The position numbers and the translations under genes are program-made. The notes under the pieces were generated by a model. That model searched no databases and was not told where the DNA came from. It was given only the letters and a program-made list of their open reading frames with translations. DNA of 64,000 nt from Bacteroidales bacterium UBA1184 (lineage in GTDB: Bacteria; Bacteroidota; Bacteroidia; Bacteroidales; ML635J-15), in contig DBYO01000024.1 in assembly GCA_002310235.1 (NCBI GenBank), positions 25,246-89,245 of the forward strand, written 5' to 3'. This document shows positions 5,663 to 63,665 of this stretch, piece after piece. Every line of letters begins with the position of its first letter. Position 1 is the first letter of the stretch.

Positions 5663-5681
5663 TCCTGAATCAAATTATTGA

Positions 5682-24614: not shown

Positions 24615-24686
24615 AATAGGCGTTAACAAATAGATTAAAAATTAACACAAATAAAACCAACGAGCCTACGTATAATAAACTCGTTG

Positions 24687-29900: not shown

Positions 29901-32811
29901 GCTTCATGCTCTTTATTTCGAGTGCGCCCTTGCCTATCTGCAGTGTGTAGAAAACAGTAACATCGTCGAACGACGAACCAATACGCACCTGCACCTTATC
30001 GCCCACCTTTGCCGAGTATTTCGACACTTTGAAGTACGACGCCATTGGGTACGACATCTTGTCCGACGAGTTGTCGGTGATGTGGAAGTTTGTGGTGTCG
30101 GCTACCGGGTTGCCGTCCTTGTCCTTGGCAGTCATTATTATGCGATAGGAACCTGGCGTGAACTTCATCTTTTTGGTGATGGCGATTGGGGTTGTGTCGG
30201 CAGTATTCACAGAGCCTTTCAACATCGACGATGTAACTTTGCGATTATACAGCGTATTTTCGTCGCCATAGCCGAGTGCGGGACAAAGTTTTTCCCACTC
30301 CTCGCGGCTGTACATCTGCATGTCGGCGGTCTTTAGCCTTGCCACGGTTGCATGCGACGGCTCCTCGAGCTTGAAGATTTCGTAATCGACAGTCGCATCG
30401 ATGTGGCTGCCCGAAATGTTTTCGCTATATATTTTGAAGCTGTTGAAGTCGGCAATGTCAACGGTTTCGGAAATACTATTCGAAATCCATAGCGACTGGC
30501 GCGAAACCATGAACGACCTTTCTATGGTATGCGATTCGCCGTTGATGTCGGCAACTACAGCCGAAATTCTGTAACGGTTGGTATTGCTAAAGCACTGCTT
30601 GGCGACAAAACTAATGGTAAACTCACCGTTTTCGTCGGTCTTGATGGTTCCGTCGGCAAGAAGTTTCTTTTCGGAATTGCTATAACTCCACCAATAATAC
30701 GAATACGAAGAGCAGTTGACGGTGAAATTGACGTCGGCACCGCTGACGGGCACACCCGAATAGCTTTTTGCACGTCCCTTGATGCTTACCGAGTCGCCAA
30801 ACGACACCTCATCCTTAATGTAGTCCATCTCTATCTCGAAGGTAGGACGCTTGTATTCCTCCACTTTGATGTATTCCGAACCCGACGAGAATCCAGTACC
30901 GCGAGCTTCGATGTGGAAATTACCGGTAAGTACGTTTTCGGGAATCTTGAATTCACCATTAACACTTCCATACTGGTTAGATTTAAGATTTAGCGTAGCT
31001 ATTTCCTTGTAGTTGACATCCTTAAGCGTGACTTTTATGCTATCGTTAGGCACAACACTGAAATTGTTGTCCTTGCCGCGGTATTCGATAGCCTTGAAAT
31101 ACACGGTCTGTCCCGGACGATAAATCGCCCTGTCGGTGAATATCTTAATCGATGTGCGCTCCTTTTCTACCTCGTCCTGCTGGTAGTATCCGTAAACCGA
31201 GAAGCACATGTCGTCGTTGTCCTTTTTCAAGTAAATAATTGTGTTGTAATTGCATTTTTTTGTATCGAAACTGAAAATGCCATCGGCAGCGGTTTCGGTG
31301 TTAAGTAAGGTTTCGGTCTTGTTGTAGTCGCGCGTGGTGACTTTCACCTTTACCTTGTCGATAGGCTTGCCAGAATTTCGGTCAACAGCCATGTATTTGC
31401 CATCGTCGATGCGAAGCAAAGCAAAGCGAGAAACTGTGAGCATGGTAAAACTCTCGATTCTGGAGCTGTCGCTTTCGGCAAAGACAAGATAGAAACCTGT
31501 AGGCAGACCTTTTTCCACATAGTAGGTGCTGTGGGTAGAATAATCGTGAGCATCGGGAAGATTTATAGTGCCTTCGGTTACAGACTTACTTTCGTAGTAT
31601 TTGTTTACATTGGCTGAATTGGTATTGAAAGTTTCGTATTCCGAAGCCTTGTCCGACACTTTTACAACCTTGATTTTAGCTGTTTTTGTATTGGCATATT
31701 CAATGTAAAGCGGAATATTTTCGTTTGGATAAGTAACCTTGTCACCCGATATGCTTATTGATGGAAATGTGAGTTTAGAAAGCAGGTTGGAGCAATGGGT
31801 TACATACTTGCTATCCTTAAACTCTTCAATTGTGGAGGTCAGAAGGTTCACAGCCTCGATGCGGTCGGCAGCTGATTTTTTCGACAGACGGTCGGCAATC
31901 TCCTTGTTGATGAAAATCACGCTTTCGTTGCCCTTGTATTGTTTTGCGGCATCGGTGAAAAGTTCCATGATAAGGTCGTCCTTACCGCTTTGCTTGCTTG
32001 CGATATAACATATGCGGCGGTAGTCGGTAAATGCGTAAGCACTACTGTTGGGTTTGTTTTCTTTAAGCATCTGTTGCATGAAAAACAAAGTCGCCATTTC
32101 GGGATTTTGGTCGGTGTCGAGGATTTCTATTTTTGAGAAATCGTCGGCATTGCAAAAGAAGCTGTTGTCCAAATTGGTGCCTGTATATCTGTATAGTTTT
32201 GCAAGCTGATTGATAATCGAATATGCAATTTCATCGTAAAGTGTTGGGAAAAAGTCGTTTTCCTTGTTGTTGTCTCTGAAAAATTCCTTGTAATCGTCGG
32301 CAGCGACATTTTTCAGTTCGGCATTCAGCGCCAGCTTGTAATGACTGATTATCAGCTTCATGAACTCGTTTTTGTCGTAAAATTCGAGGCGCGAACCTTT
32401 TTTGTCGGCAGAATCGCTCACTGCCGAACGCGAATCGATCTGATAGCGATGACGCGAGTAGTAGTTCTGATACGAAGCACCGAGTAGGAAATTGCAAACA
32501 TGCTTACATGTGCCCGACTGGATTTTGGCTTGTTCCTCAAGAAAATCGACGGCTTTAAGGTTGCCGGTCTGCTCCGACTCGATAAGGAACTTGGTTTTGT
32601 ATGTTATTGCTTTTAACTGCTGATATGCATCGTTGTCCTTGGTTGCCATGTCGAGAATACTTTCGACCTTCTGCAAGGCGCTCTTGGGCAGATCCCTGTT
32701 TTCAAAACCAGTGACCTCGATCCACAATTTCTTGTATTTGTCGTCGGTTGTCTGAGCAAATGCAGAAACTGCCAATGCTACAAAAATAATTAAGGTTACT
32801 ATCTTCTTCAT
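26953..32811 (-). CDS. Bacterial alpha-2-macroglobulin family protein with thioester motif
   Basis: About 1950 aa with a signal peptide (MKKIVTLIIFVALAVSAFAQ). YPYECAEQTF thioester CxEQ motif at nt 28558-28569, and long MG-domain-like beta-rich repeats. Track start 32817 is TTG; ATG at 32811 is preferred. Confidence 0.9.
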   Translation of the reverse strand: MKKIVTLIIFVALAVSAFAQTTDDKYKKLWIEVTGFENRDLPKSALQKVESILDMATKDNDAYQQLKAITYKTKFLIESEQTGNLKAVDFLEEQAKIQSGTCKHVCNFLLGASYQNYYSRHRYQIDSRSAVSDSADKKGSRLEFYDKNEFMKLIISHYKLALNAELKNVAADDYKEFFRDNNKENDFFPTLYDEIAYSIINQLAKLYRYTGTNLDNSFFCNADDFSKIEILDTDQNPEMATLFFMQQMLKENKPNSSAYAFTDYRRICYIASKQSGKDDLIMELFTDAAKQYKGNESVIFINKEIADRLSKKSAADRIEAVNLLTSTIEEFKDSKYVTHCSNLLSKLTFPSISISGDKVTYPNENIPLYIEYANTKTAKIKVVKVSDKASEYETFNTNSANVNKYYESKSVTEGTINLPDAHDYSTHSTYYVEKGLPTGFYLVFAESDSSRIESFTMLTVSRFALLRIDDGKYMAVDRNSGKPIDKVKVKVTTRDYNKTETLLNTETAADGIFSFDTKKCNYNTIIYLKKDNDDMCFSVYGYYQQDEVEKERTSIKIFTDRAIYRPGQTVYFKAIEYRGKDNNFSVVPNDSIKVTLKDVNYKEIATLNLKSNQYGSVNGEFKIPENVLTGNFHIEARGTGFSSGSEYIKVEEYKRPTFEIEMDYIKDEVSFGDSVSIKGRAKSYSGVPVSGADVNFTVNCSSYSYYWWSYSNSEKKLLADGTIKTDENGEFTISFVAKQCFSNTNRYRISAVVADINGESHTIERSFMVSRQSLWISNSISETVDIADFNSFKIYSENISGSHIDATVDYEIFKLEEPSHATVARLKTADMQMYSREEWEKLCPALGYGDENTLYNRKVTSSMLKGSVNTADTTPIAITKKMKFTPGSYRIIMTAKDKDGNPVADTTNFHITDNSSDKMSYPMASYFKVSKYSAKVGDKVQVRIGSSFDDVTVFYTLQIGKGALEIKSMKLSNEVKSFDIPITEKCYGDVFVTAIFVRHGRAYKESKTISVSRVDKQLDVKLVTFRDKTLPGSEESWQMKITDKFDKPIEAELAATVYDASLDSYKSHSWYFWPYSSNTMNYNFEYKGFGYSNSNSRRYVYASNRYEYTPYPTPVFFNVLSAYYSSYATDYKSGRVLYRANAAGGVVEEESSLIAADAVALNEAVEMEEELSEEEAEAFDNAEVRTNFNETAYFASNLTTDQDGNIFINFTMPESMTRWNVMGLAHTKDMKIGDVSSSLVTQKNVSVTPNLPRFMREGDEMYISAKIANLTENTISGKAKIEFINTQNSEDITDKFLKNNIVTFSADASRNTSVEWKISVPKSIGAVAVRIVAIAEGHSDGEEKVLPILTNRMMVTETMPLPVRRAGTTHFSFNAMKNNKSKSLENYSYTLEFTPNPAWYAVLALPYMMEYPYECAEQTFSRIYSNLIASHVANSDKKIEEMFNKWKSTDAEALKSNLQRNEELKSVLLENSPWLLDAENEAERKYNIGVLFDIDRIKDETKKATDKLSKMQKANGGFPWFDGMPDNLYVTQHIVGNYGHLQKLGVKFPDSSMEGMIKKAVKYIDREIERIYDLQKKYNAVALGYTQIHYLYVRSFFLKKYPMDKSTQKVFDVYMKLGEKDWPSWGFYMRGMLALAMQRSDRTATVKDIVASLKEYAQHSEELGMYWDLERGWYWYNSGIETQALLIELFDEIGEVHDVNEMKVWLLKQKQTTNWKTTKATAEAVYALLLDGTSILSETDYPVISLGDKQIDLAAETTEDGTGYYKKMWKQDEISSTWGDVSVTKADSTVAWGGIYWQYFEDIDKIKGFEDTPLKIRKDLFVNRVENGTEVIVPITQKNANLKVGDRVTVRIEIEVDRNMEYVHLKDMRASAFEPTEKLSGYRFKHSLGYYQAIKDASINFFIDILPKGTYVFEYQVIATQKGNFSNGITTIQSMYAPEYTSHSTGIRVKVE

Positions 32812-32845
32812 ATTCAAATTGATGTTTCAATGTTTATTATAAACG

Positions 32846-50730: not shown

Positions 50731-51315
50731 ATGGACAAAACCACAAAAATAGCGTTATTTGCCTCTGGCTCAGGTACAAACGTCGAAAATATAGCAAATT
50801 ATTTCAATGGCAAAACCACCGCGAAACCCGTATGTGTGCTCTGCAACAAGCCCGACGCCTACGTTCTGGAGCGAGCAAAACGTCTAGGACTCGACTCGAT
50901 GACCTTCAACCGCGCCGATTTCAACGACGGAAAACGAATAATGGAATACCTTAATAAATATAACATCGACATGATAGTCCTCGCTGGCTTCCTCTGGCTG
51001 GTTCCACAGTACCTAATCGATGCTTATCCAGGTCGCATAGTGAACATACACCCGGCGTTGTTGCCAAAGTTCGGAGGAAAGGGCATGTACGGCATGCACG
51101 TACATGAGGCCGTGAAGCAGAGCGGCGAAACCGAAACCGGCATCACCATCCACCTCATCGACGGCAACTACGACCAGGGCAGCACGGTTTTCCAGGCAAA
51201 GGTGCAGGTTAGCCCCAACGACTCTCCCGACGACATAGCAACCAAGGTACACGCACTCGAATACGAATATTATCCAAAAGTGATAGAAGAAATAGCAAAA
51301 TCAGTTAAAAGTTAA
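50731..51315 (+). CDS. purN: Phosphoribosylglycinamide formyltransferase
   Basis: ALFASGSGTN, IVLAGFLWLVP and NIHPALLPKFGGKGMYG motifs. 194 aa. Confidence 0.9.
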   Translation: MDKTTKIALFASGSGTNVENIANYFNGKTTAKPVCVLCNKPDAYVLERAKRLGLDSMTFNRADFNDGKRIMEYLNKYNIDMIVLAGFLWLVPQYLIDAYPGRIVNIHPALLPKFGGKGMYGMHVHEAVKQSGETETGITIHLIDGNYDQGSTVFQAKVQVSPNDSPDDIATKVHALEYEYYPKVIEEIAKSVKS

Positions 51316-51340
51316 AAGTTGAAAGTTGGAAGTTTATAGT
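51297..51340. repeat. 7-nt periodic array (AAGTTAA/AAGTTGA) spanning the purN stop
   Basis: aaatcagttaaaagttaaaagttgaaagttggaagtttatagtt. Confidence 0.8.
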
Positions 51341-51446
51341 TCCAGCGTTACGCTCGGAAAAGGTTGTCCGTTGTTGTCAAGGTTGTCGTAAAAAGGGGAA
51401 ACGACAACTAGAACAACAATCACTATTCTGCTCTGGTGCTTTTTGA

Positions 51447-51496
51447 ATTCTGCACAAATCATTGCAAACCGGCGCAACGCATTGCGCCGCTACAAT
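51447..51496 (+). repeat. Left copy of the 50-nt direct repeat bracketing the RHS islet
   Basis: attcTgcacaaatcattgcaaaccggcgcaAcgcattgcgccGctacaat. 47 of 50 nt are identical to 63541-63590. Contains the hairpin GGCGCAA-cgca-TTGCGCC. Confidence 0.9.
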
Positions 51497-51716
51497 AATT
51501 GAAACATTGCGTACTGTCATGTTTGAAACATGATCCGACATAGAAACGCCGCAGGGGCGGATTACAAACCCACCCCTGCGTATTGTGATTGAGTATTATG
51601 CTGCATAGAATCGACTCGTGCCTACATCACATAGCATCTGCATTGACCTCTCATTTGTATTGCCTCTTACTATAACAGAAGAAAGTCTAACAAATTTCGT
51701 TTCGTATCTTTGATGT

Positions 51717-52331
51717 TCAATCCATAACTCTTTGCTCCTTATTAGCACGTTCTTTAAACCGCCCTTTCATAAAAATTTCCATACGCTTTTTCACTTCAAT
51801 AGAATCGTACACTTCCAATAATTTTTTTTCAAGATATTTTTGTGTGCTACTATCAGCCTCAATTCCAGAAATTCCATTCACAAAAATTGTGTCATTCAAT
51901 TTAATTAAAGGAATGTTTATGTAAAACCCGTTTATATTATCATTAATGCGAACAAAAAATAATCCAACACATTGTACCAAATCAACACTTGTGATATATG
52001 GTCTAATACTAATAGTTTCTTTCTTATCAAATATAGTATCTTGTAAAAATACTCTTTTTAAATTTTCCAATTCATAAGATTTGAAACACCTTTTTGATAT
52101 TGTATCATTTAAACCAAAAAGTTCTACATTTTTGACATATTTTTCATCCGCAGCGTATGATCCATAAGGTTTTGGTCTCATCGTATTCGGCCTCCATATA
52201 AGGTGAATTTTACTTACCCCGTTTTTATTTTTTTCCTTTCGCTGAGGATAAAAACTAGAGTAAAACCATGTAGGGCAGCAAGATGTTAATTGTAACAACG
52301 ATATAATTAGTATGAATTTTATTATCCTCAT
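51717..52331 (-). CDS. Lipoprotein, candidate immunity protein for the upstream RHS toxin
   Basis: Start ATG lies 1 nt after the RHS gene stop. Lipobox LLQLTSCC. AT-rich like the toxin tip. No recognisable family. Confidence 0.5.
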   Translation of the reverse strand: MRIIKFILIISLLQLTSCCPTWFYSSFYPQRKEKNKNGVSKIHLIWRPNTMRPKPYGSYAADEKYVKNVELFGLNDTISKRCFKSYELENLKRVFLQDTIFDKKETISIRPYITSVDLVQCVGLFFVRINDNINGFYINIPLIKLNDTIFVNGISGIEADSSTQKYLEKKLLEVYDSIEVKKRMEIFMKGRFKERANKEQRVMD

Positions 52332-52332
52332 A

Positions 52333-55300
52333 TTAATTATAAGTTTTTATAAATTGTTTTCTCTGATATACTTCACGGCACATTGCAGGATACTCACTCT
52401 TATAACAATTATTACGCAAATATTTACTTTGGAACAAATGCGTTTCTTCATGTGCACCATTACCATGAATATACTCCTCTATAGACCTGTAAGGGTGCAT
52501 TTTATCAAACTTTTCTAATCCAGAATCTCTATATGCATCACTATAAACATCATTTCTATCGCTATTTCCACTCAAAACATTACTAGGATCAGCCGATATA
52601 TCTGTAGAACTACCATCTGGATTTATTAATATAGAACTAGAATAATCGTTGTCTTTTTTATCGCCAAAGTAATATGTCGAGATATAAATATGATTGTTTT
52701 CAGCAATTCCAGGTATTCTAGAGTACCCATTAGTTTCACCATCGTTATCTTCGATAAACATCGGTTTATCTGTAACATGTATATAAAACATTTTCCTTGA
52801 TCTTAGCATTCTCATAACGCCACGAGTTCCGCATTTTGTTAGAGTTCTTGCATTAATATATCGTTCGGTACCACGATCTTTCGCTTCTTGAGAATATTCA
52901 AATTTTTTAGTCTTTTTATTGTAAGTCACTCCATCTATCTTCCTTCCATCCGGGTCTCTAAGCATTATCGGATTTCCAGCGCAATACATATACGGGCTCA
53001 TGCTCGGATACTTGTCGCTCATCGGGTCCACACTAAGCCACATCATAATATTGTCGGTGTAGTATCGTGCGCCAAAGTAATTGTAGCCACTTTCGCTATC
53101 CTTTTCCTTTGCAGAGAAGGTGTAGGGGGATACATATCTGTCTCTGTGCTTGTCAACAAGAACTTCTCCGTATGGCATATACTGCAGGTACTGGTAGAAC
53201 TCGCCATGGTGGTTGGTAAGTGCCGATACGCTGCCCTGGTGGTTGTAGTGGTAGTAGAACTTTACAGGATCGAAATGAACATAATTGCCGCGGGCATATA
53301 CAATATCGCCTCTGTAGCCGACAGAATCAAGAGCATGCTGAACCTGCTTTCTAAGTCCGTAAATGAATTCTCTTTCGGTTCTGTTGTTTATTACTTCTAC
53401 CCCACTAGCATAATAATCACGTTCGGCAAAAGGAACGATCTCAGTACAAATTCTCTCTTCACCAACAAAGTAGTGCTTGTAAAGGCTACGATTGTCAATT
53501 GTTATTTGCTGTGTAGGATAGAATGTCTTGTCAAGTTCAATATCGCGGTTCATTAGCCTTTCGTTTCTATAGGCGTCAGTAACCATTCCCGAGAACTTCC
53601 ATACACGTTCGCCATCGGCATCATACAGATATGCAGCAACAGCACCTCTACCGCTTGGACGGGACATTTGACGTCCGTTTTCATCAACCATCCTGTCGCT
53701 TATTGCAGCAAGGCGGTTTTCCTCGTTGAAGTAAAGTTCGCGGACTTCTGGTCGCGGCGCCGCTCCTGGGACTATACATCTTTTTATATTGCCGTTGGCA
53801 TCCCATAAATATTTATTTGGACCAATTTTTGTCACAGCGTGAGGTTTCTGTGGATTTTCGTACGCATAGCCGTCCCTACGGTCGAAAACAGACACTTCCC
53901 CGTCTATATTATTGTGACCATTAAGAATATAGTCTCTTATATTTCCTGCCGGAGAATACGACATCTCAAAATGGTAACCAGCATCTATACCATTACTACG
54001 ACCATCAGATTTCACAAGACGATTGAGATTGTCGTACATGTACTCATAGCTGTACTGGAAATCGCCATCATTGCTTATGCCTACGATATTATAAACATCG
54101 TCATATTGATAGTGTATATCTTGTAAAACACAACCATCGCCGGCAAAACTACTCATATGCTCCAACTGCAGACTGAGCTCGTTGTATTCATAGCGATTGT
54201 ACGCACCGTTACCGTATTTACAATTGATGCGGTGGCCGTACTTGTCGTAACGAATATCGCCAACTATAATTTCTTCGCGCGAGTTCATATTGGACGAAAT
54301 CATACTCTCAAGTTTTCCAGCATTATCGTACCTATATCTAACAGTTTCACCATCGGGATATGTCATGTCCATAATACGTCCCCAGGTATCATACGTCCAC
54401 ATAGTCTTAAAAAGCATTAATTGTCCGTCTGGCATTGCAAAGGTACGAATATCTTTCACAATATCTCCCATTTCGTTGTAAAAATATTCTTGTACGCGCA
54501 CTCCGTCCTGGCGTTTGGTTACAAGACCAGCGCTCATTCCGTCGTTGATTCCTCCGTACTCGTAGTAAACGTCCATCTCTGAATTATTGGGGTAATGTAT
54601 CTCCTTAAGCCTGTCACCCATGTAAACGTAGTTTACTTCTTCACCCCTATTCTCCAACTTCTGGGTAACCTTACTAATAAGGTTGCCATTACTATAGGTA
54701 TAGCTTGTGTGTCCTGCATCGGGATGATAGCGAGAAACAAGACGTCCGAGCATATCGTAATAATATTTAGTACTATTATCCTCTGGATCAATACTTGCTA
54801 CCAACTCGCCCATCGGAGAATATATAAACTTAGTGGTTATACCGTCCGACTCGCTTGCCTGTTTTGTAGTGGTCTGCAATCCGCGGGAATCGGTATAGGA
54901 CATTAGTTCCCTGCCGAGCGGATCGCGAGTTGTTACAAGCATTGCCAATTGTCCCAATGCATCCTCCGATACATCATACGATTTTTCAATAAACTTTCCA
55001 TCTGGAGTTATTGTAGTCAAAACACGATCCATGCAGTCGTAGGTATATTTAGTAGGATTTTCAAACGAAGTTTGCAGGAATCCATCATCTTCTGTATTAA
55101 CAGTCACCTCGGCTGGCTGATAGCTTCCTACTACTCGGCCGTAATCGTCGTAAACATTCTTACCCGAAGCTACAAACTTTTCTACTCTGTCCACCACCGA
55201 CTTGCGTGCAGTCTGCATAGTTCGTCCAAGACCGTCGCATACCGTCTGCGTTACAAAGGTATTGCCTCTATTAATTGCATCTTTATGTATAACTCTTGCC

Positions 55301-58300
55301 CAACGTGGAGAACGGTTTCTCAATTCGTCCCAATATTTGAACTTCAGCGAATATTCCTGATCCATTGGACCTGTAATAGTATTTATTTTACCATCGGAAT
55401 AATAAGTATATACCATTCTTGTTCCGTTAGGAGCTGTAATTACTGTGGGTTTTCCAAACCTATAATCGTAACCTTCCAAAGTTGTGTTCAACCAGGCCTC
55501 TGTCTGATTTTGGTCGTTTATAAAATTCACCCCAATATTCGAAAGGTAAGTATGGGTCGCATCGTCGTAAGTATATATATAAAACATACGGTTCGGATAT
55601 GTAACCCCTATCAGATTTCCATTAGATTCTTCATAAGTGTACATGGTACTTTCCCATGTGTTTTCTGTAACAAAATTTCTGACCTGGAATATTTTACCGT
55701 TTTCGGTGTACTCGCGCTCAAACTTTCTTAAAAGCTGATTATCAGCCGACTTGACAGTCATTTCTGACATCATATCCAACAAGTTCTTGGTTCTATTAGG
55801 AACATAGGTCATTTCAGCCTTTACATATTCATCGGGTCGGTAATTATTGGTGTAACTTGTAATATTTCCGTATTTACCATACTTATAGTGCTTTACCGAA
55901 ACCAATTCATTCGAACCATAAACGATAGTCTGTTCCGACTCCAAGCGAGGATATACCTCCTGCTCACTACCACATTCATAGTCAGCCACTACTTCTCCTG
56001 TATTCAAGTCGTTGAGGGTCCAGTTATAGTCGGTACTTGTCTGCAAAACATCTCTAGCATCAAGAACTTCATCCCTGTATTTCAGTCCGTGACGCAATCC
56101 GTTTTCGGTAATGTAATATTCCTTTTGCTTTCTTAGCTCTTCAGAATTATCATGATTAACAATTCTAGTTGTCACTTCGGCAAATCCGTAGCTTTCGCGC
56201 TCAATGCGGTGATACTTCATGCCTGAATATTCAAATTGGTAATGTAAGTAGTCGCTACCATCTTCGAAATCTCCATCGTTATCGAGTACCGTCAATTCCG
56301 ACATCAACCATTTGCTGTGAGGATTATCTGCATTAGGATACAATAGAGAATACGAGATTTCGTATTCGCCAAAAGCGGGAGTTGTAACCTTCTTAAGGAT
56401 ATCGCGCCTCATCGGCTTTCCGTACTTTACAGAAGCACTCCTATTAACAAAATTCAATATATCAACAGCGCCGTCACCGTTTATATCCATCACTCTTGTC
56501 TTCTCTTTGCTAATGGTATATAGGAAGTCTGCGTATAAGCTTGCCGTTACTTTTAGGTTCTCTACAGGGAAGCCAACACTTCCTGAACCATTTACAGAAA
56601 TATTATGTGTGTGGTTATTAGACAAATCACTGTCAAAATTATTAACAGATATTGGCATTGCATAAAATCCTCTTCCATTGTTATAATAAACATTTATTCC
56701 ACTACCGTTTTTCTCAACAATGTCAACTAAACCATCCGAATTAATATCCATCATTGTGGCATTGTCAAAACTCTTATTACTATTCACATTTATGCCACCA
56801 GAAAACGAGAAATTGCTCGTATTATAACTCATTGGTAATGGTAAGAACTGCCACAAATTATTTAAAAGATCTAATAAGCTCGAATTGCTTTTATTAGAAG
56901 AAACATGACCTGGTGTAATAGATATAGGATATCGTTTAGAGAACTTGTATCCCATATTGTACTCCACATAATATCTGTCTTCATCATCATTGAAAGTTAC
57001 AATATCGGGCAGACCATCGGAATTGACATCTATATATGAATCTAGTACATTGTTTTCAGAAGCACTTGTATTTAGACCCATTGACGGAATATTCATTTCC
57101 GTAGATTCTGGACTTGTTCCCTTTCCCTTGATAATATTTGGTTTAAAAGAAATAGACCCTCCGTTTGATTTGCCTTTGCTGTAACTTGTATATACATCCT
57201 CGTGCTCATCGGCAAACCTTAAAATATTGTTAGACATGTCGCCATTGGGCAAGGTATATTGTATTTGTCTTATTCCAACAATATCGGGATAACCGTCGCC
57301 ATTCATATCCATCATATCGCTAAAGCCTTTTGTCCAAGTATTAGTGTGGTTGTACCCTATCTGATTACTACTTATAACAGCGAGAGAGGCTGAGAACGAA
57401 AGATTCTGTGTTTTTGACACTTTGTTTACTACAGGGAAGTGTCTAGAACCTAATGGATCATCAAAATTAGGCAATGCATCGCCATGCTCGGCAAAACCAT
57501 CAGAGTCTTGCTGCATATTTTCAAATTCATGCCTTGCATAATCCAAACCTATACCGCTACCAATAGAGCCATATACAGGATCAGGTTGCTGATTGGGAGC
57601 TGCGTTATGATTAGGCTTAACAAAAGCACTTCTAAACGGATCCATCCACCTTTCATTGCTCAAGTCGGTCAACATTGGCACAAACATGTGCATAAGTGGA
57701 TACTCCGACAGGGGACCATTGTTTACATAGTCTTCCAAATTCTGAGCATAATCGTCATTTTGATGATTAGAATTAGACTGACGTACTAGTCTGGTAAGAC
57801 TAGGATCTCCTGTTATATTATTTAATTCATCCTCAGTAGCATAAATTTTGTCGAAGTTGAATAAATGGAATGGTATTGCTTCGTAAGGATATATCTCAGC
57901 TACTCCGTCAGGAGTAATTCCTTCTTGAACATCAACTGGAGTCTTTACTATCAAAGTGTCCAAATAAGAGAACTGGCCCCATCCGCGATACATATTTCCA
58001 CCCATATATATCTTTTTAGCAGGATGTTTTGCATAAAGACCAGCAAAGTAACTTAATGGTACATTACTGCTAGCATTGCGGACTGCAACTTTGCTATTTG
58101 CATAATAATCATACTCTTCGTCATCTTCGGCAAACTCACTATTAATATTTTTAATTGTGTAATCGAAATATACATTATAAAAATCTCTTCCTCTAGGCAA
58201 AGTGAAAGACAACTCTTCTTGCCCATTTAGAAGCAACCTTTTGACTTTATTCTGGTTCAAAGTCTTTACTGTTAAATATATTTCCGCATCTTGATTGTTG

Positions 58301-61300
58301 CTGCGAAGATGGTTCACCAATTCAGAATTGGGAGTCACAATATAGCGTCCAGGCCTCAAATTATATGGTCGCGACATACATAATTGATTGGAGTATATGC
58401 TCATATTGAGTGAGGGATGATATGTTTCCCTATCCTGAACATTCTCACCGACATATTTAACGCTACTAGAAAACGAAATGTCGCTCCAATCGACATTACT
58501 GTTCGACCGCAATTCGAAAAGCAATTGGTCTTGTTCAGCGACAGGAAGAGATGCATTAATTATTTCAACAGATGGTATATCCTGCACGTTATCGTTGCTA
58601 AGGAAGATCTCACTATATTCTTCTAGAACCACGCGAGTGTAAGTATCATCATCGTTGTGTTTATTATGAACTACAAAAAATTCCAAGGTATCGCTCTTGG
58701 GTCTCGTAGCATGAAGGGATACCGAGAAATTCACTTCACCGTCAAAAGTTGAATAAAATGCGCTTCCATCCTGTACTACCGCATCAGCATTGTACTCATA
58801 ATGCAACAATGGCTTATCATCGGCATCAGTGCTATTTGCACCAATCTGTCCAACATAATTTACTATTTGTTGTGGGGTATGCTCATCTATAAGCGGATAT
58901 CGAGGGATTATCTCAATACTAAATGCATTAAAGATATCAATAGTCTCTTCACTATTAGAATGAACATGAAATAATATGTGTCCATCTTTGGGAATAAATA
59001 CATTATATTCATGTATTCCACAATCCTTATAAAATCTAGCATCCTGAAATGGGTATTCTTCACTATAAAACAGAAGGCTATCGGCTTTATATACATTATA
59101 TCCCATGACACATGATCCTCTAGTTCCATATTCATCGTGAGTATAGTCTGCAACTTTAAAATATATATGGAAAGGATGTCCCATTGGTAACGGATTTCTC
59201 CACAATACCACAGCATCACGCTTAGCTTCTTTTTTGTCAGGTTCCATACTCATATCAACATTGCCATCATACTCAAACTTATAGCATTGGTCGTAACGAG
59301 ATCTTTGTTCAGGATCATTCTCCCAATCTGTAAATTGTGGGATTCCTTCATTATCGGGGAAATTGATATATACAGTATTGCCAGAAACAAAATCTACAAA
59401 TCCATCCCCATTTACATCCAAGAAATAATCCGAATTTATTGTCTTTGTCATAGAATAGTTGCCACCTATCTGACCTTTGACAAACTGATTGAAAAACAAC
59501 TCGATACCTACGCTATTTGTTTTACTTGCCGATTTACCAAGTCTAGGTATGGTAAGCGAATGTGGTCTATCTACAAACGACACATAATTACCATCGCTTA
59601 TATAACCTTTGTAAAATTTAATAATATCTCCATTTTTTTCTACGCGGTCAACAACGCCATCGCCATTAAGGTCGATAATCTGAGTTTTCTGGTTGTTGAT
59701 ATCGTAAGAATAATGATAATTGACACCTATTGAGTTATTTTTGAGCATTGGCATAGCATCAACAAAACCAACGCTAGCGCTTCCTCCCACATTAATGGCA
59801 TAACTCGTATTCTTGCTAAGGTTAGACAATTCTTCTGTCTCTTCAACTTGACTACCATACACAACGGCCGGTTCTCCTACAGACATAGACAATGGTGTTC
59901 CTTCTTCAAAAGAAATCTCGTCATCCGAGAAATAATCGAAAGTATGTACATAAAAGCCTTGTCTCTGAATATCATCAAAATTTTGGTTTTCCATACCAGG
60001 ATCGGTAATTTCAGCTATTGCCACAAGTCTCCTTTTCGGCAAATTGCCATGATTCTCATTAAGAGAACCAGCCACTTCATACTTGAACCTATAACATTTT
60101 ACAAAATTGTTATCATAGGTAACCGTTATTTTCGAAAGCATTCTCATATCCGAAGTAAAGAATCCGTAGTTCGCCAATAATGAAGGGGTAACAGGTGTTT
60201 CATCATATTCAAATATCACATGGTATTTACCTGCCTCCAATTGCTGGTCTTCATATTCCCTTGATGTATATATTATTTCCGAAACTCGCATTTGCTTAGC
60301 CAATGGACGCAGTCCTAGCATAGACTCATCTTCAGTTTCTGTTTCTATATCATAAACATATTCTACAGTGTTTCCATACAGGTCTTTCATTTTAGCCAAT
60401 CCCCATACTGCGATGTTGTCATCAGGGTCATCGCCAGCCAACGAGAATCTTAATGCGGTATTTTCTTCCTGTACTTTGTCACCATAAATGTAATTAACAC
60501 CATTGCGGTCTGTTACTTCCCACCAATAGTTTTTCGGAGAGTCTCCGTGTCGCTTTATTTTATCAAACTTACCCTCGTTCAGATATGCATATGTCTTTTC
60601 TGCACCTCTCTCTCCTCCTCTTTCGACATACAAAGGTTTGTGGCGTGTAATTATTGTAGTATTAGGATCTTCCTCCGACTCTACTATAGCCTCACCGTTC
60701 ACAAGGTACGATTCTGACTCTACATCGGCCGAATATAGAGGCACACCCCAGCGGGTATCAACCGTTATGCTCGGGATGCTGAGGCTCCAGCCGGGACCCA
60801 TAAATCCGTCCTTAACGTCGCTGCTGTACGAAATGGAAATCTGCGGCGCCATACCGTTTCTTCCTGCCGGTATCTGTATGGGGTAGTTCATAGAACAATT
60901 TCCACTATTGTTGGCTGTAGGAGCCTGCATTATGGTCATTCCCTCCAGTGGATTTGCATACTCTATGCCTCGTATGCTTGTGTTAGCATAACCGCTTGCA
61001 TCGGGAATTTCGGGCTGAGTAAGAATTCCATTTATAAAATCGGTAAAATGATCGGTACTGGTCACCACAAGCTGGTGCTTGTGATCGATGCTGTCGATAG
61101 GCATGCATACCCACTGCGACTGATCTTCATCGTAGAAGAACGTCCTTATATCGTCGGGACGATAACCTGCAGGAATGAGCGAGGTGTCGTATCCTATGCT
61201 CAACTGCAACGGCTTGTTGAACTTTCCGTGAGGAAGACAACGGTAACCTCCGTAAGTTGAGGTTACGTTTACCAGACCGTAATCGAGTTCGGGCAACTCA

Positions 61301-61644
61301 TTGCCGCGCAAACCACGAACGGTTAAGTCCTTTTCGGAACTTACTGCTCCCATAGGAATCTCCAGAACAATGCTTCCTGCCGAAATCTTACATGCTTCCA
61401 AACTTGATATTTTCCTCTCTATAAACAGAATTGCATCTGACGATTCTGCGTCAAATGCATCTGTATTTCCATAATTCTCACTTGATTTGTCATCGGCACT
61501 TTCCATACCAGATGGATCTGCCATAGACTTACTCAAAAAATCATACTGCAATTCTGCAGATTTGCTCGATATTCTGTGCAACGAAATACCAAGCGATAAA
61601 ACAATGATACCTACTATAATAGGTATAATGACCTTATTATTCAT
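52333..61644 (-). CDS. SpvB / FG-GAP / RHS-repeat protein (Tc-toxin TcB-TcC-like fusion) with polymorphic C-terminal toxin
   Basis: 3103 aa with an N-terminal TM helix (IIPIIVGIIVLSLGISL). SpvB-like GMAPQISISYSSDVKDGFMGPGWSLSIPSITVDTRWGVPLY (~60730-60882). Six DxNGDGxxD loops and a TcdB-middle-like YHRIERESYGFAEV. Many YD repeats (e.g. YTYDCMDRVLTTITPDGKF, YYYDMLGRLVSRYHPDAGHTSYTY). RHS core end SVDPMSDKYPSMSPYMYCAGNPIMLRDPDG. Confidence 0.9.
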   Translation of the reverse strand: MNNKVIIPIIVGIIVLSLGISLHRISSKSAELQYDFLSKSMADPSGMESADDKSSENYGNTDAFDAESSDAILFIERKISSLEACKISAGSIVLEIPMGAVSSEKDLTVRGLRGNELPELDYGLVNVTSTYGGYRCLPHGKFNKPLQLSIGYDTSLIPAGYRPDDIRTFFYDEDQSQWVCMPIDSIDHKHQLVVTSTDHFTDFINGILTQPEIPDASGYANTSIRGIEYANPLEGMTIMQAPTANNSGNCSMNYPIQIPAGRNGMAPQISISYSSDVKDGFMGPGWSLSIPSITVDTRWGVPLYSADVESESYLVNGEAIVESEEDPNTTIITRHKPLYVERGGERGAEKTYAYLNEGKFDKIKRHGDSPKNYWWEVTDRNGVNYIYGDKVQEENTALRFSLAGDDPDDNIAVWGLAKMKDLYGNTVEYVYDIETETEDESMLGLRPLAKQMRVSEIIYTSREYEDQQLEAGKYHVIFEYDETPVTPSLLANYGFFTSDMRMLSKITVTYDNNFVKCYRFKYEVAGSLNENHGNLPKRRLVAIAEITDPGMENQNFDDIQRQGFYVHTFDYFSDDEISFEEGTPLSMSVGEPAVVYGSQVEETEELSNLSKNTSYAINVGGSASVGFVDAMPMLKNNSIGVNYHYSYDINNQKTQIIDLNGDGVVDRVEKNGDIIKFYKGYISDGNYVSFVDRPHSLTIPRLGKSASKTNSVGIELFFNQFVKGQIGGNYSMTKTINSDYFLDVNGDGFVDFVSGNTVYINFPDNEGIPQFTDWENDPEQRSRYDQCYKFEYDGNVDMSMEPDKKEAKRDAVVLWRNPLPMGHPFHIYFKVADYTHDEYGTRGSCVMGYNVYKADSLLFYSEEYPFQDARFYKDCGIHEYNVFIPKDGHILFHVHSNSEETIDIFNAFSIEIIPRYPLIDEHTPQQIVNYVGQIGANSTDADDKPLLHYEYNADAVVQDGSAFYSTFDGEVNFSVSLHATRPKSDTLEFFVVHNKHNDDDTYTRVVLEEYSEIFLSNDNVQDIPSVEIINASLPVAEQDQLLFELRSNSNVDWSDISFSSSVKYVGENVQDRETYHPSLNMSIYSNQLCMSRPYNLRPGRYIVTPNSELVNHLRSNNQDAEIYLTVKTLNQNKVKRLLLNGQEELSFTLPRGRDFYNVYFDYTIKNINSEFAEDDEEYDYYANSKVAVRNASSNVPLSYFAGLYAKHPAKKIYMGGNMYRGWGQFSYLDTLIVKTPVDVQEGITPDGVAEIYPYEAIPFHLFNFDKIYATEDELNNITGDPSLTRLVRQSNSNHQNDDYAQNLEDYVNNGPLSEYPLMHMFVPMLTDLSNERWMDPFRSAFVKPNHNAAPNQQPDPVYGSIGSGIGLDYARHEFENMQQDSDGFAEHGDALPNFDDPLGSRHFPVVNKVSKTQNLSFSASLAVISSNQIGYNHTNTWTKGFSDMMDMNGDGYPDIVGIRQIQYTLPNGDMSNNILRFADEHEDVYTSYSKGKSNGGSISFKPNIIKGKGTSPESTEMNIPSMGLNTSASENNVLDSYIDVNSDGLPDIVTFNDDEDRYYVEYNMGYKFSKRYPISITPGHVSSNKSNSSLLDLLNNLWQFLPLPMSYNTSNFSFSGGINVNSNKSFDNATMMDINSDGLVDIVEKNGSGINVYYNNGRGFYAMPISVNNFDSDLSNNHTHNISVNGSGSVGFPVENLKVTASLYADFLYTISKEKTRVMDINGDGAVDILNFVNRSASVKYGKPMRRDILKKVTTPAFGEYEISYSLLYPNADNPHSKWLMSELTVLDNDGDFEDGSDYLHYQFEYSGMKYHRIERESYGFAEVTTRIVNHDNSEELRKQKEYYITENGLRHGLKYRDEVLDARDVLQTSTDYNWTLNDLNTGEVVADYECGSEQEVYPRLESEQTIVYGSNELVSVKHYKYGKYGNITSYTNNYRPDEYVKAEMTYVPNRTKNLLDMMSEMTVKSADNQLLRKFEREYTENGKIFQVRNFVTENTWESTMYTYEESNGNLIGVTYPNRMFYIYTYDDATHTYLSNIGVNFINDQNQTEAWLNTTLEGYDYRFGKPTVITAPNGTRMVYTYYSDGKINTITGPMDQEYSLKFKYWDELRNRSPRWARVIHKDAINRGNTFVTQTVCDGLGRTMQTARKSVVDRVEKFVASGKNVYDDYGRVVGSYQPAEVTVNTEDDGFLQTSFENPTKYTYDCMDRVLTTITPDGKFIEKSYDVSEDALGQLAMLVTTRDPLGRELMSYTDSRGLQTTTKQASESDGITTKFIYSPMGELVASIDPEDNSTKYYYDMLGRLVSRYHPDAGHTSYTYSNGNLISKVTQKLENRGEEVNYVYMGDRLKEIHYPNNSEMDVYYEYGGINDGMSAGLVTKRQDGVRVQEYFYNEMGDIVKDIRTFAMPDGQLMLFKTMWTYDTWGRIMDMTYPDGETVRYRYDNAGKLESMISSNMNSREEIIVGDIRYDKYGHRINCKYGNGAYNRYEYNELSLQLEHMSSFAGDGCVLQDIHYQYDDVYNIVGISNDGDFQYSYEYMYDNLNRLVKSDGRSNGIDAGYHFEMSYSPAGNIRDYILNGHNNIDGEVSVFDRRDGYAYENPQKPHAVTKIGPNKYLWDANGNIKRCIVPGAAPRPEVRELYFNEENRLAAISDRMVDENGRQMSRPSGRGAVAAYLYDADGERVWKFSGMVTDAYRNERLMNRDIELDKTFYPTQQITIDNRSLYKHYFVGEERICTEIVPFAERDYYASGVEVINNRTEREFIYGLRKQVQHALDSVGYRGDIVYARGNYVHFDPVKFYYHYNHQGSVSALTNHHGEFYQYLQYMPYGEVLVDKHRDRYVSPYTFSAKEKDSESGYNYFGARYYTDNIMMWLSVDPMSDKYPSMSPYMYCAGNPIMLRDPDGRKIDGVTYNKKTKKFEYSQEAKDRGTERYINARTLTKCGTRGVMRMLRSRKMFYIHVTDKPMFIEDNDGETNGYSRIPGIAENNHIYISTYYFGDKKDNDYSSSILINPDGSSTDISADPSNVLSGNSDRNDVYSDAYRDSGLEKFDKMHPYRSIEEYIHGNGAHEETHLFQSKYLRNNCYKSEYPAMCREVYQRKQFIKTYN
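52336..52938 (-). other. C-terminal variable toxin domain of the RHS protein (201 aa after DPDGRK) with HExxH motif
   Basis: DPDG is encoded at 52945-52956. HEETH is encoded at 52438-52452, near the C-terminus (GNGAHEETHLFQ). The region is visibly more AT-rich than the adjacent RHS shell. Confidence 0.6.
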
Positions 61645-61661
61645 AACTTTATTTTATTTTT

Positions 61662-63269
61662 TTAATATACAACTATTGTCTTCGAAAGTTTGTCGGCTGC
61701 CGTACTTACTTCTATCAAGTATGTACCAGACATTTCAATATGCTTCTTTACCTCATAATGCTTCAATCCATCAATCTTGCTGTTCCAGATAAGCTTACCG
61801 TCAACACCAACTATTCTAATGTTGAATTTCTGTGCATCGGCGAGGTCAACGGTAACAACAAAATCACCATAGCATGGATTCGGGAAAACATCAACTCCCA
61901 TTATCCTTGTATCAATGCTTCCGTCCAATCTTGAATCGGAATTGTTATGTCCACCATTTCCAGTATTGTCATTTCTACCAAAATCGCTATTGGTATAACC
62001 GTCTGCAGCTTCTGCAATTTCTTGCTCTATCTGCTCTTCCAGAACTTTGTCAACGAATACCGTACCGAAACTGAATCTGTCGAACCCACTACCGTCGGTA
62101 TCCCATTTTATATTATTATAGTAATAATAGCCATCTGCATCTGCCGAATCGGGAGCAAAAGTCTCCATTTCACCTGGCATATATGTAAGACTGTCGGTGC
62201 GAACTATGAAAAGATTCGGAGCAAGAGTATCGGAAAGATTTTCGTATTTCAACTTCAGGTTTACTGGCATCATATGGAAATCTTGTCCAATGGTGGCGAT
62301 TTTCCACTCTTTAAGCGACCTTACATAAAATTCTGCATTACGTCCAGAATATATGGTGTCGGCTGTTGAACTTAACGATTCTCCATTGCTGGTTACTACA
62401 AGGTAATTGCCATCTTTAAGGACAACCTCGTTTTTCCTGTTGCTTTCGCGCAGGTTACCTACATATATTGCGAGCTCAGAAGATGCACAATTGGCACCGC
62501 ACTGTTTCTGGTGTACTCCATAACCATCGTCGCGGCATAGCACTGCCATTTCGTAGGGATACTCCGAATTTTCTTCGTAACGCCATATAGTGTCGTTTGC
62601 AGAATTTATAAGATCAAGGCCCTGCACTGTTATGCTGTGCTTCATCACAAGGTAACTATAAACCTTGCAAATATCAAGAGCATCAATTTGCTTGTCAAAA
62701 AACATGAACTCGGAAATCTTTCCGCAAAACTGTGTACTGTCGTCTCCAAACAATTTAACATGCGAATCGTCGCTTATTTCAAGCCCAGCCCACTTGTCCA
62801 TGTATAAATTTATCACCGCCGACGCAATAGTCGTGTCGGCAAATGTTATCAGACGACCACTGCGCTTACGCAATGTCTGAGTTGTAAAATGTATGTTCTC
62901 AATCGAATCCGGCACAATAGCCCATAATGTGGAAGGCGATTTGCTACCGGTTGGTTCGTAAACAACAAACACATTAATGTCCGAATTACGTTTCATCTTG
63001 TATGGTACAAGCAAACCCTTTTCGCCATTCTTATACGAAATGCACGGGTTGTAATTCATAAAACCGTCGGCCTTAGATTCAAAAATAACCTTATCACCTT
63101 TTTCGCTCTTCGACAACAGTTTTACAATACTGTCGTTGTCCGAAACCGCTTGAACCCAGACACTGGGAGTTAACAAGCCTTTCTGTGCATAAATAGATGC
63201 ACTCGATAACAGCATAATTGCTGTAAACACGCAATAATAAAAACGCAATGTTTTTCTGTATGCCCTCAT
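61662..63269 (-). CDS. T9SS-sorted secreted protein with LamG-like region, first gene of the RHS operon
   Basis: Signal peptide (AIMLLSSASIYAQ). KISEFMFFDKQID is LamG-like. Gly/Asn/Asp-rich linker. C-terminal T9SS type-A domain (VFPNPCYGDFVVTVDL...GTYLIEVS...TIVVY). 17 nt upstream of the RHS gene. Confidence 0.75.
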   Translation of the reverse strand: MRAYRKTLRFYYCVFTAIMLLSSASIYAQKGLLTPSVWVQAVSDNDSIVKLLSKSEKGDKVIFESKADGFMNYNPCISYKNGEKGLLVPYKMKRNSDINVFVVYEPTGSKSPSTLWAIVPDSIENIHFTTQTLRKRSGRLITFADTTIASAVINLYMDKWAGLEISDDSHVKLFGDDSTQFCGKISEFMFFDKQIDALDICKVYSYLVMKHSITVQGLDLINSANDTIWRYEENSEYPYEMAVLCRDDGYGVHQKQCGANCASSELAIYVGNLRESNRKNEVVLKDGNYLVVTSNGESLSSTADTIYSGRNAEFYVRSLKEWKIATIGQDFHMMPVNLKLKYENLSDTLAPNLFIVRTDSLTYMPGEMETFAPDSADADGYYYYNNIKWDTDGSGFDRFSFGTVFVDKVLEEQIEQEIAEAADGYTNSDFGRNDNTGNGGHNNSDSRLDGSIDTRIMGVDVFPNPCYGDFVVTVDLADAQKFNIRIVGVDGKLIWNSKIDGLKHYEVKKHIEMSGTYLIEVSTAADKLSKTIVVY

Positions 63270-63295
63270 AAATTTATCGTTTTAATGTTCGTGTG

Positions 63296-63303
63296 CAAAA
63301 ATA
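63296..63303 (-). promoter_or_regulatory. -7 box upstream of the T9SS-partner/RHS/immunity operon
   Basis: CAAAAATA on plus equals TATTTTTG on minus, 27 nt before ATG 63269. A very AT-rich ~240-nt tract lies upstream. Confidence 0.4.
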
Positions 63304-63540
63304 TTTTATTTTCATTAACATTACTAAACAATATTTTTACATTATACTTTATCAGAAAATTTTTTAAATATTATAGATAAGAATTTATATAATATGCAAA
63401 ATTGAGTGTTCGAAAAATTTGTTAAAGGACTACCTTTTCAAAAGAAATAAAACATAAACGTACAATATTTACAATTTTAGAATAACGAATTACATTTTTT
63501 TAGAATTGGATCTGTGTGCGGATGCAATATTTTGCGTCTC

Positions 63541-63590
63541 ATTCAGCACAAATCATTGCAAACCGGCGCAGCGCATTGCGCCTCTACAAT
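63541..63590 (+). repeat. Right copy of the 50-nt direct repeat bracketing the RHS islet
   Basis: attcAgcacaaatcattgcaaaccggcgcaGcgcattgcgccTctacaat. Confidence 0.9.
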
Positions 63591-63665
63591 CTTCGAATCA
63601 TCAAATCAATCGAACATCACACCTCGTAACCTTTAGCTCGGCTTTGCCAAATCGTAAATAATATT

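Follow-up and report, generated by a model that had tools for sequence, protein, structure and literature searches.

Polymorphic toxins with a TcdB/TcaC-type architecture have been recorded for Bacteroidetes (Zhang et al. 2012, PMC3482391), and the same survey catalogues the metallopeptidase tips of RHS toxins, Tox-MPTase1-5/HopH1-type, including those carried by TcdB/TcaC-type RHS proteins of Bacteroidetes. Some versions of the PVC-metallopeptidase are also terminal toxin domains of polymorphic toxins (PMC3482391). Here we describe a locus of this kind in the gut-type Bacteroidales bacterium UBA1184, on a 64-kb stretch of contig DBYO01000024.1 (positions 25,246 to 89,245; this whole stretch is called the window): an operon that encodes a giant RHS protein that has an HExxH tip at its C-terminus, followed by the gene of a small lipoprotein. 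Its genetic logic of RHS shell, swapped tip, immunity gene and AT-rich foreign cassette is textbook. The new element is the tip family itself, which has an HExxH...E motif but neither a name nor a structural match, together with a lipoprotein immunity family of its own. We consider it probable that the tip is a zinc hydrolase that is encapsulated by the RHS shell and acts in the periplasm, that the lipoprotein is its cognate immunity protein, and that both were acquired horizontally as one cassette.

All positions below follow the numbering of the whole window, and the operon reads from the minus strand. It consists of three co-directional genes, for a protein with a C-terminal sorting domain (CTD) of the type IX secretion system (T9SS), for the RHS protein and for the 204-aa lipoprotein. 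The features around the toxin tip are:

52333..61644, minus strand: RHS polymorphic toxin of the TcdB/TcaC type, 3103 aa (open reading frame and translation, Pfam, NCBIfam)
52336..52944, minus strand: 203-aa toxin tip of the unnamed HExxH...E family, starting right after DPDG
52438..52452, minus strand: HEETH, tip residues 165-169, the predicted two metal-binding His and catalytic Glu (codons CAT GAA GAA ACG CAT)
52393..52395, minus strand: codon for E184, a Glu predicted to be the third metal ligand (gluzincin-like) from its invariance and its place at the start of the last helix
51717..52331, minus strand: 204-aa lipoprotein, predicted cognate immunity protein (translation, family of 10, synteny with the tip)
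53014..53016, minus strand: recombination junction at codon D2877, between ...WLSVDPMSD and KYPSMSPY..., where blastn homology to shells and modules of the same genus stops
52945..53013, minus strand: last 23 residues of the RHS core, KYPSMSPYMYCAGNPIMLRDPDG, ending in DPDG, of the core-end type of the tip family and imported with the tip

The 3103-aa protein has an N-terminal transmembrane segment or signal anchor, followed in this order by SpvB (Pfam match at residues 246-464), an FG-GAP propeller (FG-GAP_3), TcdB_toxin_midN (1710-1827), RHS/YD repeats (RHS_repeat and YD_repeat_2x), Rhs_assc_core and the tip. With its RHS repeats and an Rhs-associated core that ends in the motif PxxxxDPxG, it is an RHS polymorphic toxin. 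The match to Rhs_assc_core (NCBIfam TIGR03696) spans residues 2822-2900 and its last residue is the G of DPDG (codons GAC CCG GAT GGA at 52956-52945); this is where a preliminary description of the DNA, made from its letters and reading frames, had placed the end of the core (52945-52956). The same description correctly located the codons of HEETH (52438-52452) and a lipobox protein (LTSC) starting 1 nt after the stop: the stop codon TAA at 52335-52333 is followed by a single base, T at 52332, and by the ATG of the next open reading frame at 52331. It erred in the length of the tip, given as 201 aa (the actual length is 203 aa, nt 52336-52944), and in letting the protein end at GNGAHEETHLFQ, as 34 more residues follow HEETH, including the invariant E184. 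Autoproteolytic release at DPDG would be expected from what is known of the RHS/TcC family. RHS shell, tip and immunity gene are each present once in the genome.

When 1.84 billion representatives were searched exhaustively with phmmer, 45 clusters had tips of this family at E <= 1e-3, 33 of them at E <= 1e-10. The match is the extreme C-terminus in all 45 clusters and stands nearly always right behind DPxG and an RHS core end of the type KYPSxSPYxYCxNNP. The smallest host proteins are orphan-size fragments (about 200-350 aa) and the largest are giants of 3070-3844 aa; SpvB, FG-GAP and RHS are scored by Pfam only in the closest relative (P0013, tip 56-57% identical), and the other hosts show RHS core ends. 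Smaller searches returned little: single-sequence and word-index searches found 1 match and 5 matches, a search of metagenome and genome contigs with the single tip as query found no related loci, and a narrower tip alignment found six, two of which are one contig. The closest full-length relative is a toxin of 3070 aa from an uncultured Bacteroidales metagenome-assembled genome (MAG; L010/L012), whose tip is 56-57% identical and has an intact HEERH. At this locus (5616-5732), a terminator-like hairpin stands after the toxin gene; the next gene, going by its translation only, probably encodes a methionyl-tRNA synthetase.

When 34 sequences of the family are aligned (27-56% identity to the window tip), seven columns are invariant: T36, G39, H165, E166, H169, E184 and A187. 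E184 is a Glu 15 residues past the second His, and the motif is flanked by conserved residues with the consensus HGxGAHEExHLxQ. The preliminary description had staked its case on HExxH being conserved in homologues and this expectation held: HE..H is kept in all homologues that reach the C-terminus, and the few without it are all cut at contig ends or frameshifted. The N-terminal 120 residues are conserved too, with the motifs IxGVxY, RGTxxYIxAR and TxxG. We considered whether the tip is built from two separable modules and rejected this: the half-length matches (P0047, P0051, P0053, P0054 and P0059) are contig-end cuts or frameshifts. The N-terminal part is truly missing in one copy only, that of a Flavobacteriales MAG (L015, 4515-5711), where the shortened tip lacks the N-terminal ~95 residues and keeps DSG...HEETH...E.

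The AlphaFold2 model of the tip, computed from an 11-sequence alignment, has a mean pLDDT of 91.3 and a pTM of 0.88, with all five models at >= 90. The chain starts with a β-hairpin (residues 6-17), from which three helices (19-47) lead to a seven-stranded sheet (53-118); two helices (129-149) come next, then helix 155-170 and, at the end, the long helix 180-202. HEETH lies at the C-terminal end of helix 155-170 and E184 at the start of helix 180-202. A helix with two His followed by one with a Glu is the textbook gluzincin arrangement, and alignment and model together place an invariant HExxH and an invariant Glu in just these positions. The HExxH had been described as unusually close to the C-terminus; given that the predicted third ligand comes from the last helix, there is nothing odd in this position.

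The preliminary description did not recognise the tip as a member of a named Tox family, and profile searches agree. The tip alone had no family match, also in NCBIfam, and when it was scanned together with 34 family members against Pfam-A (hmmscan), none scored above threshold. For comparison by hhalign, genuine Tox-MPTase2, Tox-MPTase3 and eCIS_core domains from Bacteroidota genomes were aligned and run against the tip profile; the resulting alignments to all three families are limited to 11-17 residues around HExxH. We reject Tox-MPTase2 (PF15638), which had no hmmscan match and an hhalign probability of 0.65% with HExxH alone aligned, and Tox-MPTase3 (PF15639), which was matched by 1 of the 34 members at E 0.05, below the cut-off, and reached 3.8% in hhalign, again with HExxH alone aligned. 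The eCIS_core/PVC-metallopeptidase family (PF13699) is rejected as well: the hhalign probability is 13% across 11 columns that cover the motif only, and eCIS_core is absent among the 25 Pfam families listed for tip-family members. The likeness of the tip to the HExxHxxQ-E signature of PVC-metallopeptidases is therefore, at sequence level, one of motif only. The own genome has no match to the profile of Tox-MPTase2, Tox-MPTase3 or eCIS_core, and comparing the tip with all PDB sequences (phmmer and profile search) returned nothing relevant, with spurious response-regulator matches at E > 1.

The protein encoded by the gene next to the tip starts with MRIIKFILIISLLQLTSCC, a type-II signal peptide with the lipobox L-T-S-C; the lipobox pattern [LVI][ASTVI][GAS]C is present as MRIIKFILIISLLQL-TSC, and the codon of the lipobox Cys18 is at 52278-52280. 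A shorter gene call of 154 aa (P0003, start M51) was rejected, as homologues keep the upstream signal peptide and the lipobox. The family has 10 clusters with 30-74% identity, in which the signal peptide is conserved and the lipobox Cys near-invariant. Among its invariant positions are those of a DTISKRC motif, to which C82 belongs, and C121; as the protein is exported, these two Cys probably form a disulfide. The immunity-family alignment has no acidic surface-export signal after the lipobox Cys, and for this reason the lipoprotein likely faces the periplasm. Its AlphaFold2 model has a pLDDT of 78.8 and, in a Foldseek search of the PDB, no match with E < 0.1.

Linkage of the two families was counted over the seven independent loci that have sequence downstream of a tip. 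In four of them, namely the window, L006/L007, L013 and L014, the gene that directly follows the tip belongs to the immunity family (hmmsearch E 1e-47 to 1e-98); it either overlaps the tip gene or is 0-4 nt away. The next gene after the most distant tips (L011, 33% identity; L015, 36% identity) encodes another small signal-peptide or lipobox protein; that of L015 is a 157-aa lipobox protein with a marginal match to the immunity profile (E 0.009). In L002-L005, an orphan copy of the immunity gene, with no cognate toxin, heads an array of modules that each consist of an RHS core end with tip and a small exported protein. Two such core-end/tip modules lie behind the orphan copy at L002 9872-13541, and also in L003-L005; the sequence just upstream of the L002 orphan copy translates into a LKNLKGVKLGQK-type repeat, which is also present at the array end in G008 (L041 2354-2872). 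Sequence comparison thus speaks for the lipoprotein as the immunity partner of the tip: genes of its family come directly after the tip in the four loci named above and stand as orphans in RHS arrays. The 204-aa lipoprotein is probably the cognate immunity protein and would protect the periplasm of the producer.

Tip and immunity gene had been described, by eye, as more AT-rich than the RHS shell, and this is correct and no chance effect: the tip has a GC content of 0.323 and the immunity gene one of 0.294, compared with 0.400 for the shell and 0.428 for the genome, and the GC content at third codon positions is 0.222, 0.244 and 0.376 for tip, immunity gene and shell, respectively. The 1228-nt stretch of tip and immunity gene has a GC content of 0.308, about three standard deviations lower than genome windows (0.427 ± 0.038), and an equally low value is found in only 0.7% of 13,358 genome windows of 1228 nt. 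The drop starts only at about 52945-52900.

Homology to relatives stops further upstream. Up to window nt 53014/53015, blastn identity is 75% to the shell of G025 and 87-91% to orphan modules of G008, both of the same genus, and both carry unrelated tips past nt 53014, the pattern of a variable tip. The best shell orthologue, that of G025 (68% identical in amino acids, 75% in nucleotides), continues after ...WLSVDPMSD with another core end, behind which come a tip of ~200 aa with no relation to that of the window and another lipoprotein. The core end beyond the junction is, in the window, of the type KYPSxSPYxYCxNNP...DPxG that is found with the tip family; the type of the genus is ERxWISPYNYCQWNPIGRVDxWG. 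Because homology stops at 53014 and the core-end type travels with the tip family, the exchanged unit includes the last 23 core residues. The preliminary description was thus right that a cassette had been exchanged, as neither G025 nor G008 has, in its shells and modules, tips or immunity genes related to those of the window, and wrong in placing the breakpoint at DPDG: the junction is at nt 53014, 20 codons upstream.

RHS shells are present in 24 of 39 genomes of the genus, many with orphan arrays. The tip profile had no match in 56 other genomes of the same taxonomic family, and a search of 400 other genomes sampled from the phylum gave one weak partial match only (E 1.8e-4). Judged by these comparisons, the exchanged unit is core end, tip and immunity gene, and it was acquired horizontally.

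The three genes of the operon are part of an island, the remaining features of which are:

51297..63648, no strand: island of 12.35 kb with T9SS-CTD gene, RHS gene and immunity gene, bordered by purN on one side and the next conserved gene on the other
61662..63269, minus strand: 535-aa protein with T9SS C-terminal sorting domain (Por_Secre_tail match), 17 nt upstream of the RHS gene
51550..51580, minus strand: terminator-like hairpin of 14 bp (9 GC) with a T-rich tail, at the end of the operon; a 39-nt match (87% identity) to the end of the RHS orphan array of G008

Homology of the flanks to relatives stops at 51296 on the purN side and restarts at 63649, and in G026 (L038) the site is empty, with the flanks about 75 bp apart; the three-gene operon is therefore an island. 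The genome with the closest purN (G008, L041; 96% identical in amino acids) has 5.3 kb at the same site, with an ATPase/STAS-like pair and two orphan tip/immunity modules. Each of these modules has its own small exported protein, and one of the tips has a JAB-like HxHPxxxxxxPSxxD motif. To judge from its contents in these relatives, this site next to purN is a hotspot. A dispersed intergenic repeat of ~61 nt with the palindrome GGCGCAACGCATTGCGCC, of which the genome has about 15 copies, is found in direct orientation (88.5% identity) at 51447-51507 and 63541-63601, close to either end of the island. The repeat could be a substrate for recombination, or just a common terminator or an element resembling repetitive extragenic palindromes (REP). 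Elsewhere in the window, two further large minus-strand genes encode giant exported proteins, namely a GEVED/Big_2/Listeria-Bacteroides-repeat protein of 2828 aa that has a T9SS sorting domain (16143-24629) and a bacterial alpha-2-macroglobulin of 1954 aa (26953-32817).

The gene upstream of the RHS gene is not confined to this genome. At seven loci, spread over six other genomes of the same genus, a full-length homologue of the 535-aa protein (24-31% identity) is encoded directly upstream of an SpvB-RHS gene; contigs with this gene pair are G004:C80, G003:C12, G003:C5, G020:C80, G002:C10 and G017:C66. A seventh genome (G030, C54) has a partial homologue (44% identity, query residues 8-413) adjoining an RHS fragment. 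This recurrence of the T9SS-cargo gene directly upstream of SpvB-RHS genes suggests that the two proteins are a functional pair, and it hints at a T9SS-secreted partner that takes part in the display or delivery of RHS toxins that have no TcA.

From these data we propose the following mechanism. The RHS shell would enclose the 203-aa tip, and the aspartyl autoprotease of the core would cut at DPDG and free the tip, as can be expected from TcC and Rhs proteins. The payload would then enter the periplasm of a neighbouring Bacteroidota cell, presumably by a route that does not involve a type VI secretion system (T6SS). There the tip would act as a zinc-dependent hydrolase, most likely a minimal metallopeptidase of the gluzincin type, whose metal would be held by H165, H169 and E184, with E166 as general base; it would attack a protein of the envelope or a peptide of the peptidoglycan. 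The co-transcribed 204-aa lipoprotein, tethered by Cys18, would bind and neutralise tips that arrive from sibling cells. We place the action of the tip in the periplasm because every downstream partner is exported: that an exported immunity protein indicates a periplasmic effector is established logic for the periplasmic effectors of the T6SS.

Several results weigh against this proposal. Neither Pfam, NCBIfam and PDB searches nor hhalign provided a sequence or profile link from the tip to any peptidase family, and a Foldseek search of the PDB with the tip model gave no chain with E < 1 (best E 1.4, TM about 0.1-0.2) and matched no zincin; against BFVD the best E was 0.29. A zincin fold was thus recovered neither among solved structures nor with peptidase profiles. 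Minimal zincin cores can escape Foldseek, and for this reason we have lowered our estimate for a zincin fold without giving it up; on the model, the fold would be either a strongly divergent minimal zincin or a new one. As neither structure, sequence nor profile gave a peptidase match, it is the motif and the pair of helices that carry the peptidase reading. In the closest full-length relative (L010/L012), no immunity-family gene was found, neither downstream of the toxin nor elsewhere in the 3.0-Mb MAG. Delivery is a further difficulty: the 91% complete genome has no gene for the T6SS sheath VipB/TssC (the E. coli control was matched) and no TcA markers (VRP1, TcA_TcB_BD), where the control genomes were also unmatched. 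A Pfam scan of the 3103-aa protein found neither a PAAR nor a VgrG domain, and the combination that defines T6SS-delivered Rhs effectors, a PAAR/VgrG-linked N-terminus and a T6SS in the genome, is lacking.

The missing similarity to any zincin, in structure or in profile, is what one would see if the tip were a metal-dependent hydrolase other than a peptidase, for example an amidase or esterase that acts on peptidoglycan, lipid II or another envelope lipid; delivery by the RHS shell and the immunity protein would be unchanged. An exported immunity protein fits any envelope target, and the strongly conserved N-terminal 120 residues could form the site for a substrate that is not a peptide. We nevertheless regard such an enzyme as unlikely: HExxH with a Glu on the next helix is just what a gluzincin looks like. 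All catalogued HExxH tips of polymorphic toxins were, moreover, assigned a metallopeptidase fold (PMC3482391). A metallopeptidase with another task, to process or release rather than to kill, is conceivable from the motif HExxHxxQ...E of the closer members, which resembles the signature of releasing metallopeptidases of PVC/eCIS (PMC3482391) and is aligned over 11 residues by hhalign. That alignment reaches only 13% and covers the motif alone, and the domain is itself the terminal payload past DPxG, with nothing downstream to release. Nor does the domain look like a decayed, inactive remnant, as its catalytic residues are invariant across about 27-57% identity, which indicates purifying selection and not decay. 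With a cognate exported partner gene conserved in addition, a releasing peptidase or a remnant is hardly to be expected.

A different target altogether is raised by the architecture of the RHS protein. SpvB, TcdB_toxin_midN and RHS in one chain match TcB/TcC, and the protein could be a Tc-toxin-like TcB-TcC fusion that is directed against eukaryotic host or protist cells and has no connection to the lipoprotein; the full-length relative without immunity gene would agree with this. No TcA marker was found, with the above caveat that the control genomes were also unmatched, and the lipoprotein family stands beside the tip in four independent loci (0-4 nt or overlap) and as an orphan in RHS arrays. 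Relatives swap their tips together with the downstream gene, and this pattern is the signature of interbacterial toxin/immunity pairs; we therefore consider a eukaryotic target very improbable. Within the proposal of a periplasmic zinc hydrolase with lipoprotein immunity, a more far-reaching version would have the tip found a structurally new HExxHxxQ...E class of metallohydrolases with a periplasmic target, delivered by an SpvB-RHS cocoon without TcA or T6SS and with the T9SS partner, on a contact-dependent route of Bacteroidota that has not been described before. This version is speculative and we hold it to be rather doubtful.

The tips of polymorphic toxins have proved to be a source both of novel enzymes and of novel antibacterial targets. 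The tip described here is a compact, conserved and confidently modelled HExxH...E domain that fits into none of the curated families and is without a relative among solved structures, and the matching lipoprotein immunity family points to a target in the periplasm. In many Bacteroidales, SpvB-RHS proteins occur with neither TcA nor T6SS, and the conserved T9SS-cargo gene upstream offers a testable handle on how their payloads are delivered.

Among known systems, the tip is most readily compared with Tox-MPTase2 and Tox-MPTase3 of Bacteroidetes, which are likewise small HExxH payloads, C-terminal to the RHS core of proteins with SpvB and propeller, and exchanged as cassettes. Unlike the Tox-MPTases, the tip family has its own conserved N-terminal half and the invariant Glu 15 residues past the second His; also, no immunity family is listed for the MPTases (Zhang et al., PMC3482391), whereas the tip is paired with a lipoprotein immunity family. 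With PVC/eCIS_core (PF13699, formerly DUF4157; HExxHxxQ...E) it shares a local AHExTHxxQ and a downstream Glu. However, eCIS_core is an N-terminal marker of contractile-injection cargo, while the tip is an RHS payload that follows DPxG.

A precedent for the pair of tip and lipoprotein is VgrG2b of P. aeruginosa, for which Wood and colleagues reportedly showed in 2019 that the C-terminal HExxH toxin acts in the periplasm of the target cell and is neutralised by an exported lipoprotein that is encoded next to it. The relation is one of analogy: no sequence relation was found, and the solved VgrG2b structure is not among the Foldseek matches listed for the tip model. VgrG2b rides on the T6SS spike, whereas the tip here is carried by an RHS shell. 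In its shell of YD/RHS repeats, its plug formed by an SpvB/TcdB-type propeller and its payload behind the DPxG autoproteolysis motif, the protein resembles both the TcB-TcC cocoon of the Tc toxins (Photorhabdus/Yersinia) and the Rhs effectors of the T6SS. It differs from both in that no TcA, PAAR, VgrG or T6SS sheath was found, and in that its N-terminus has a membrane anchor or signal and a conserved T9SS-cargo gene lies directly upstream. There is, further, a probable immunity gene, and the target is therefore predicted to be bacterial.

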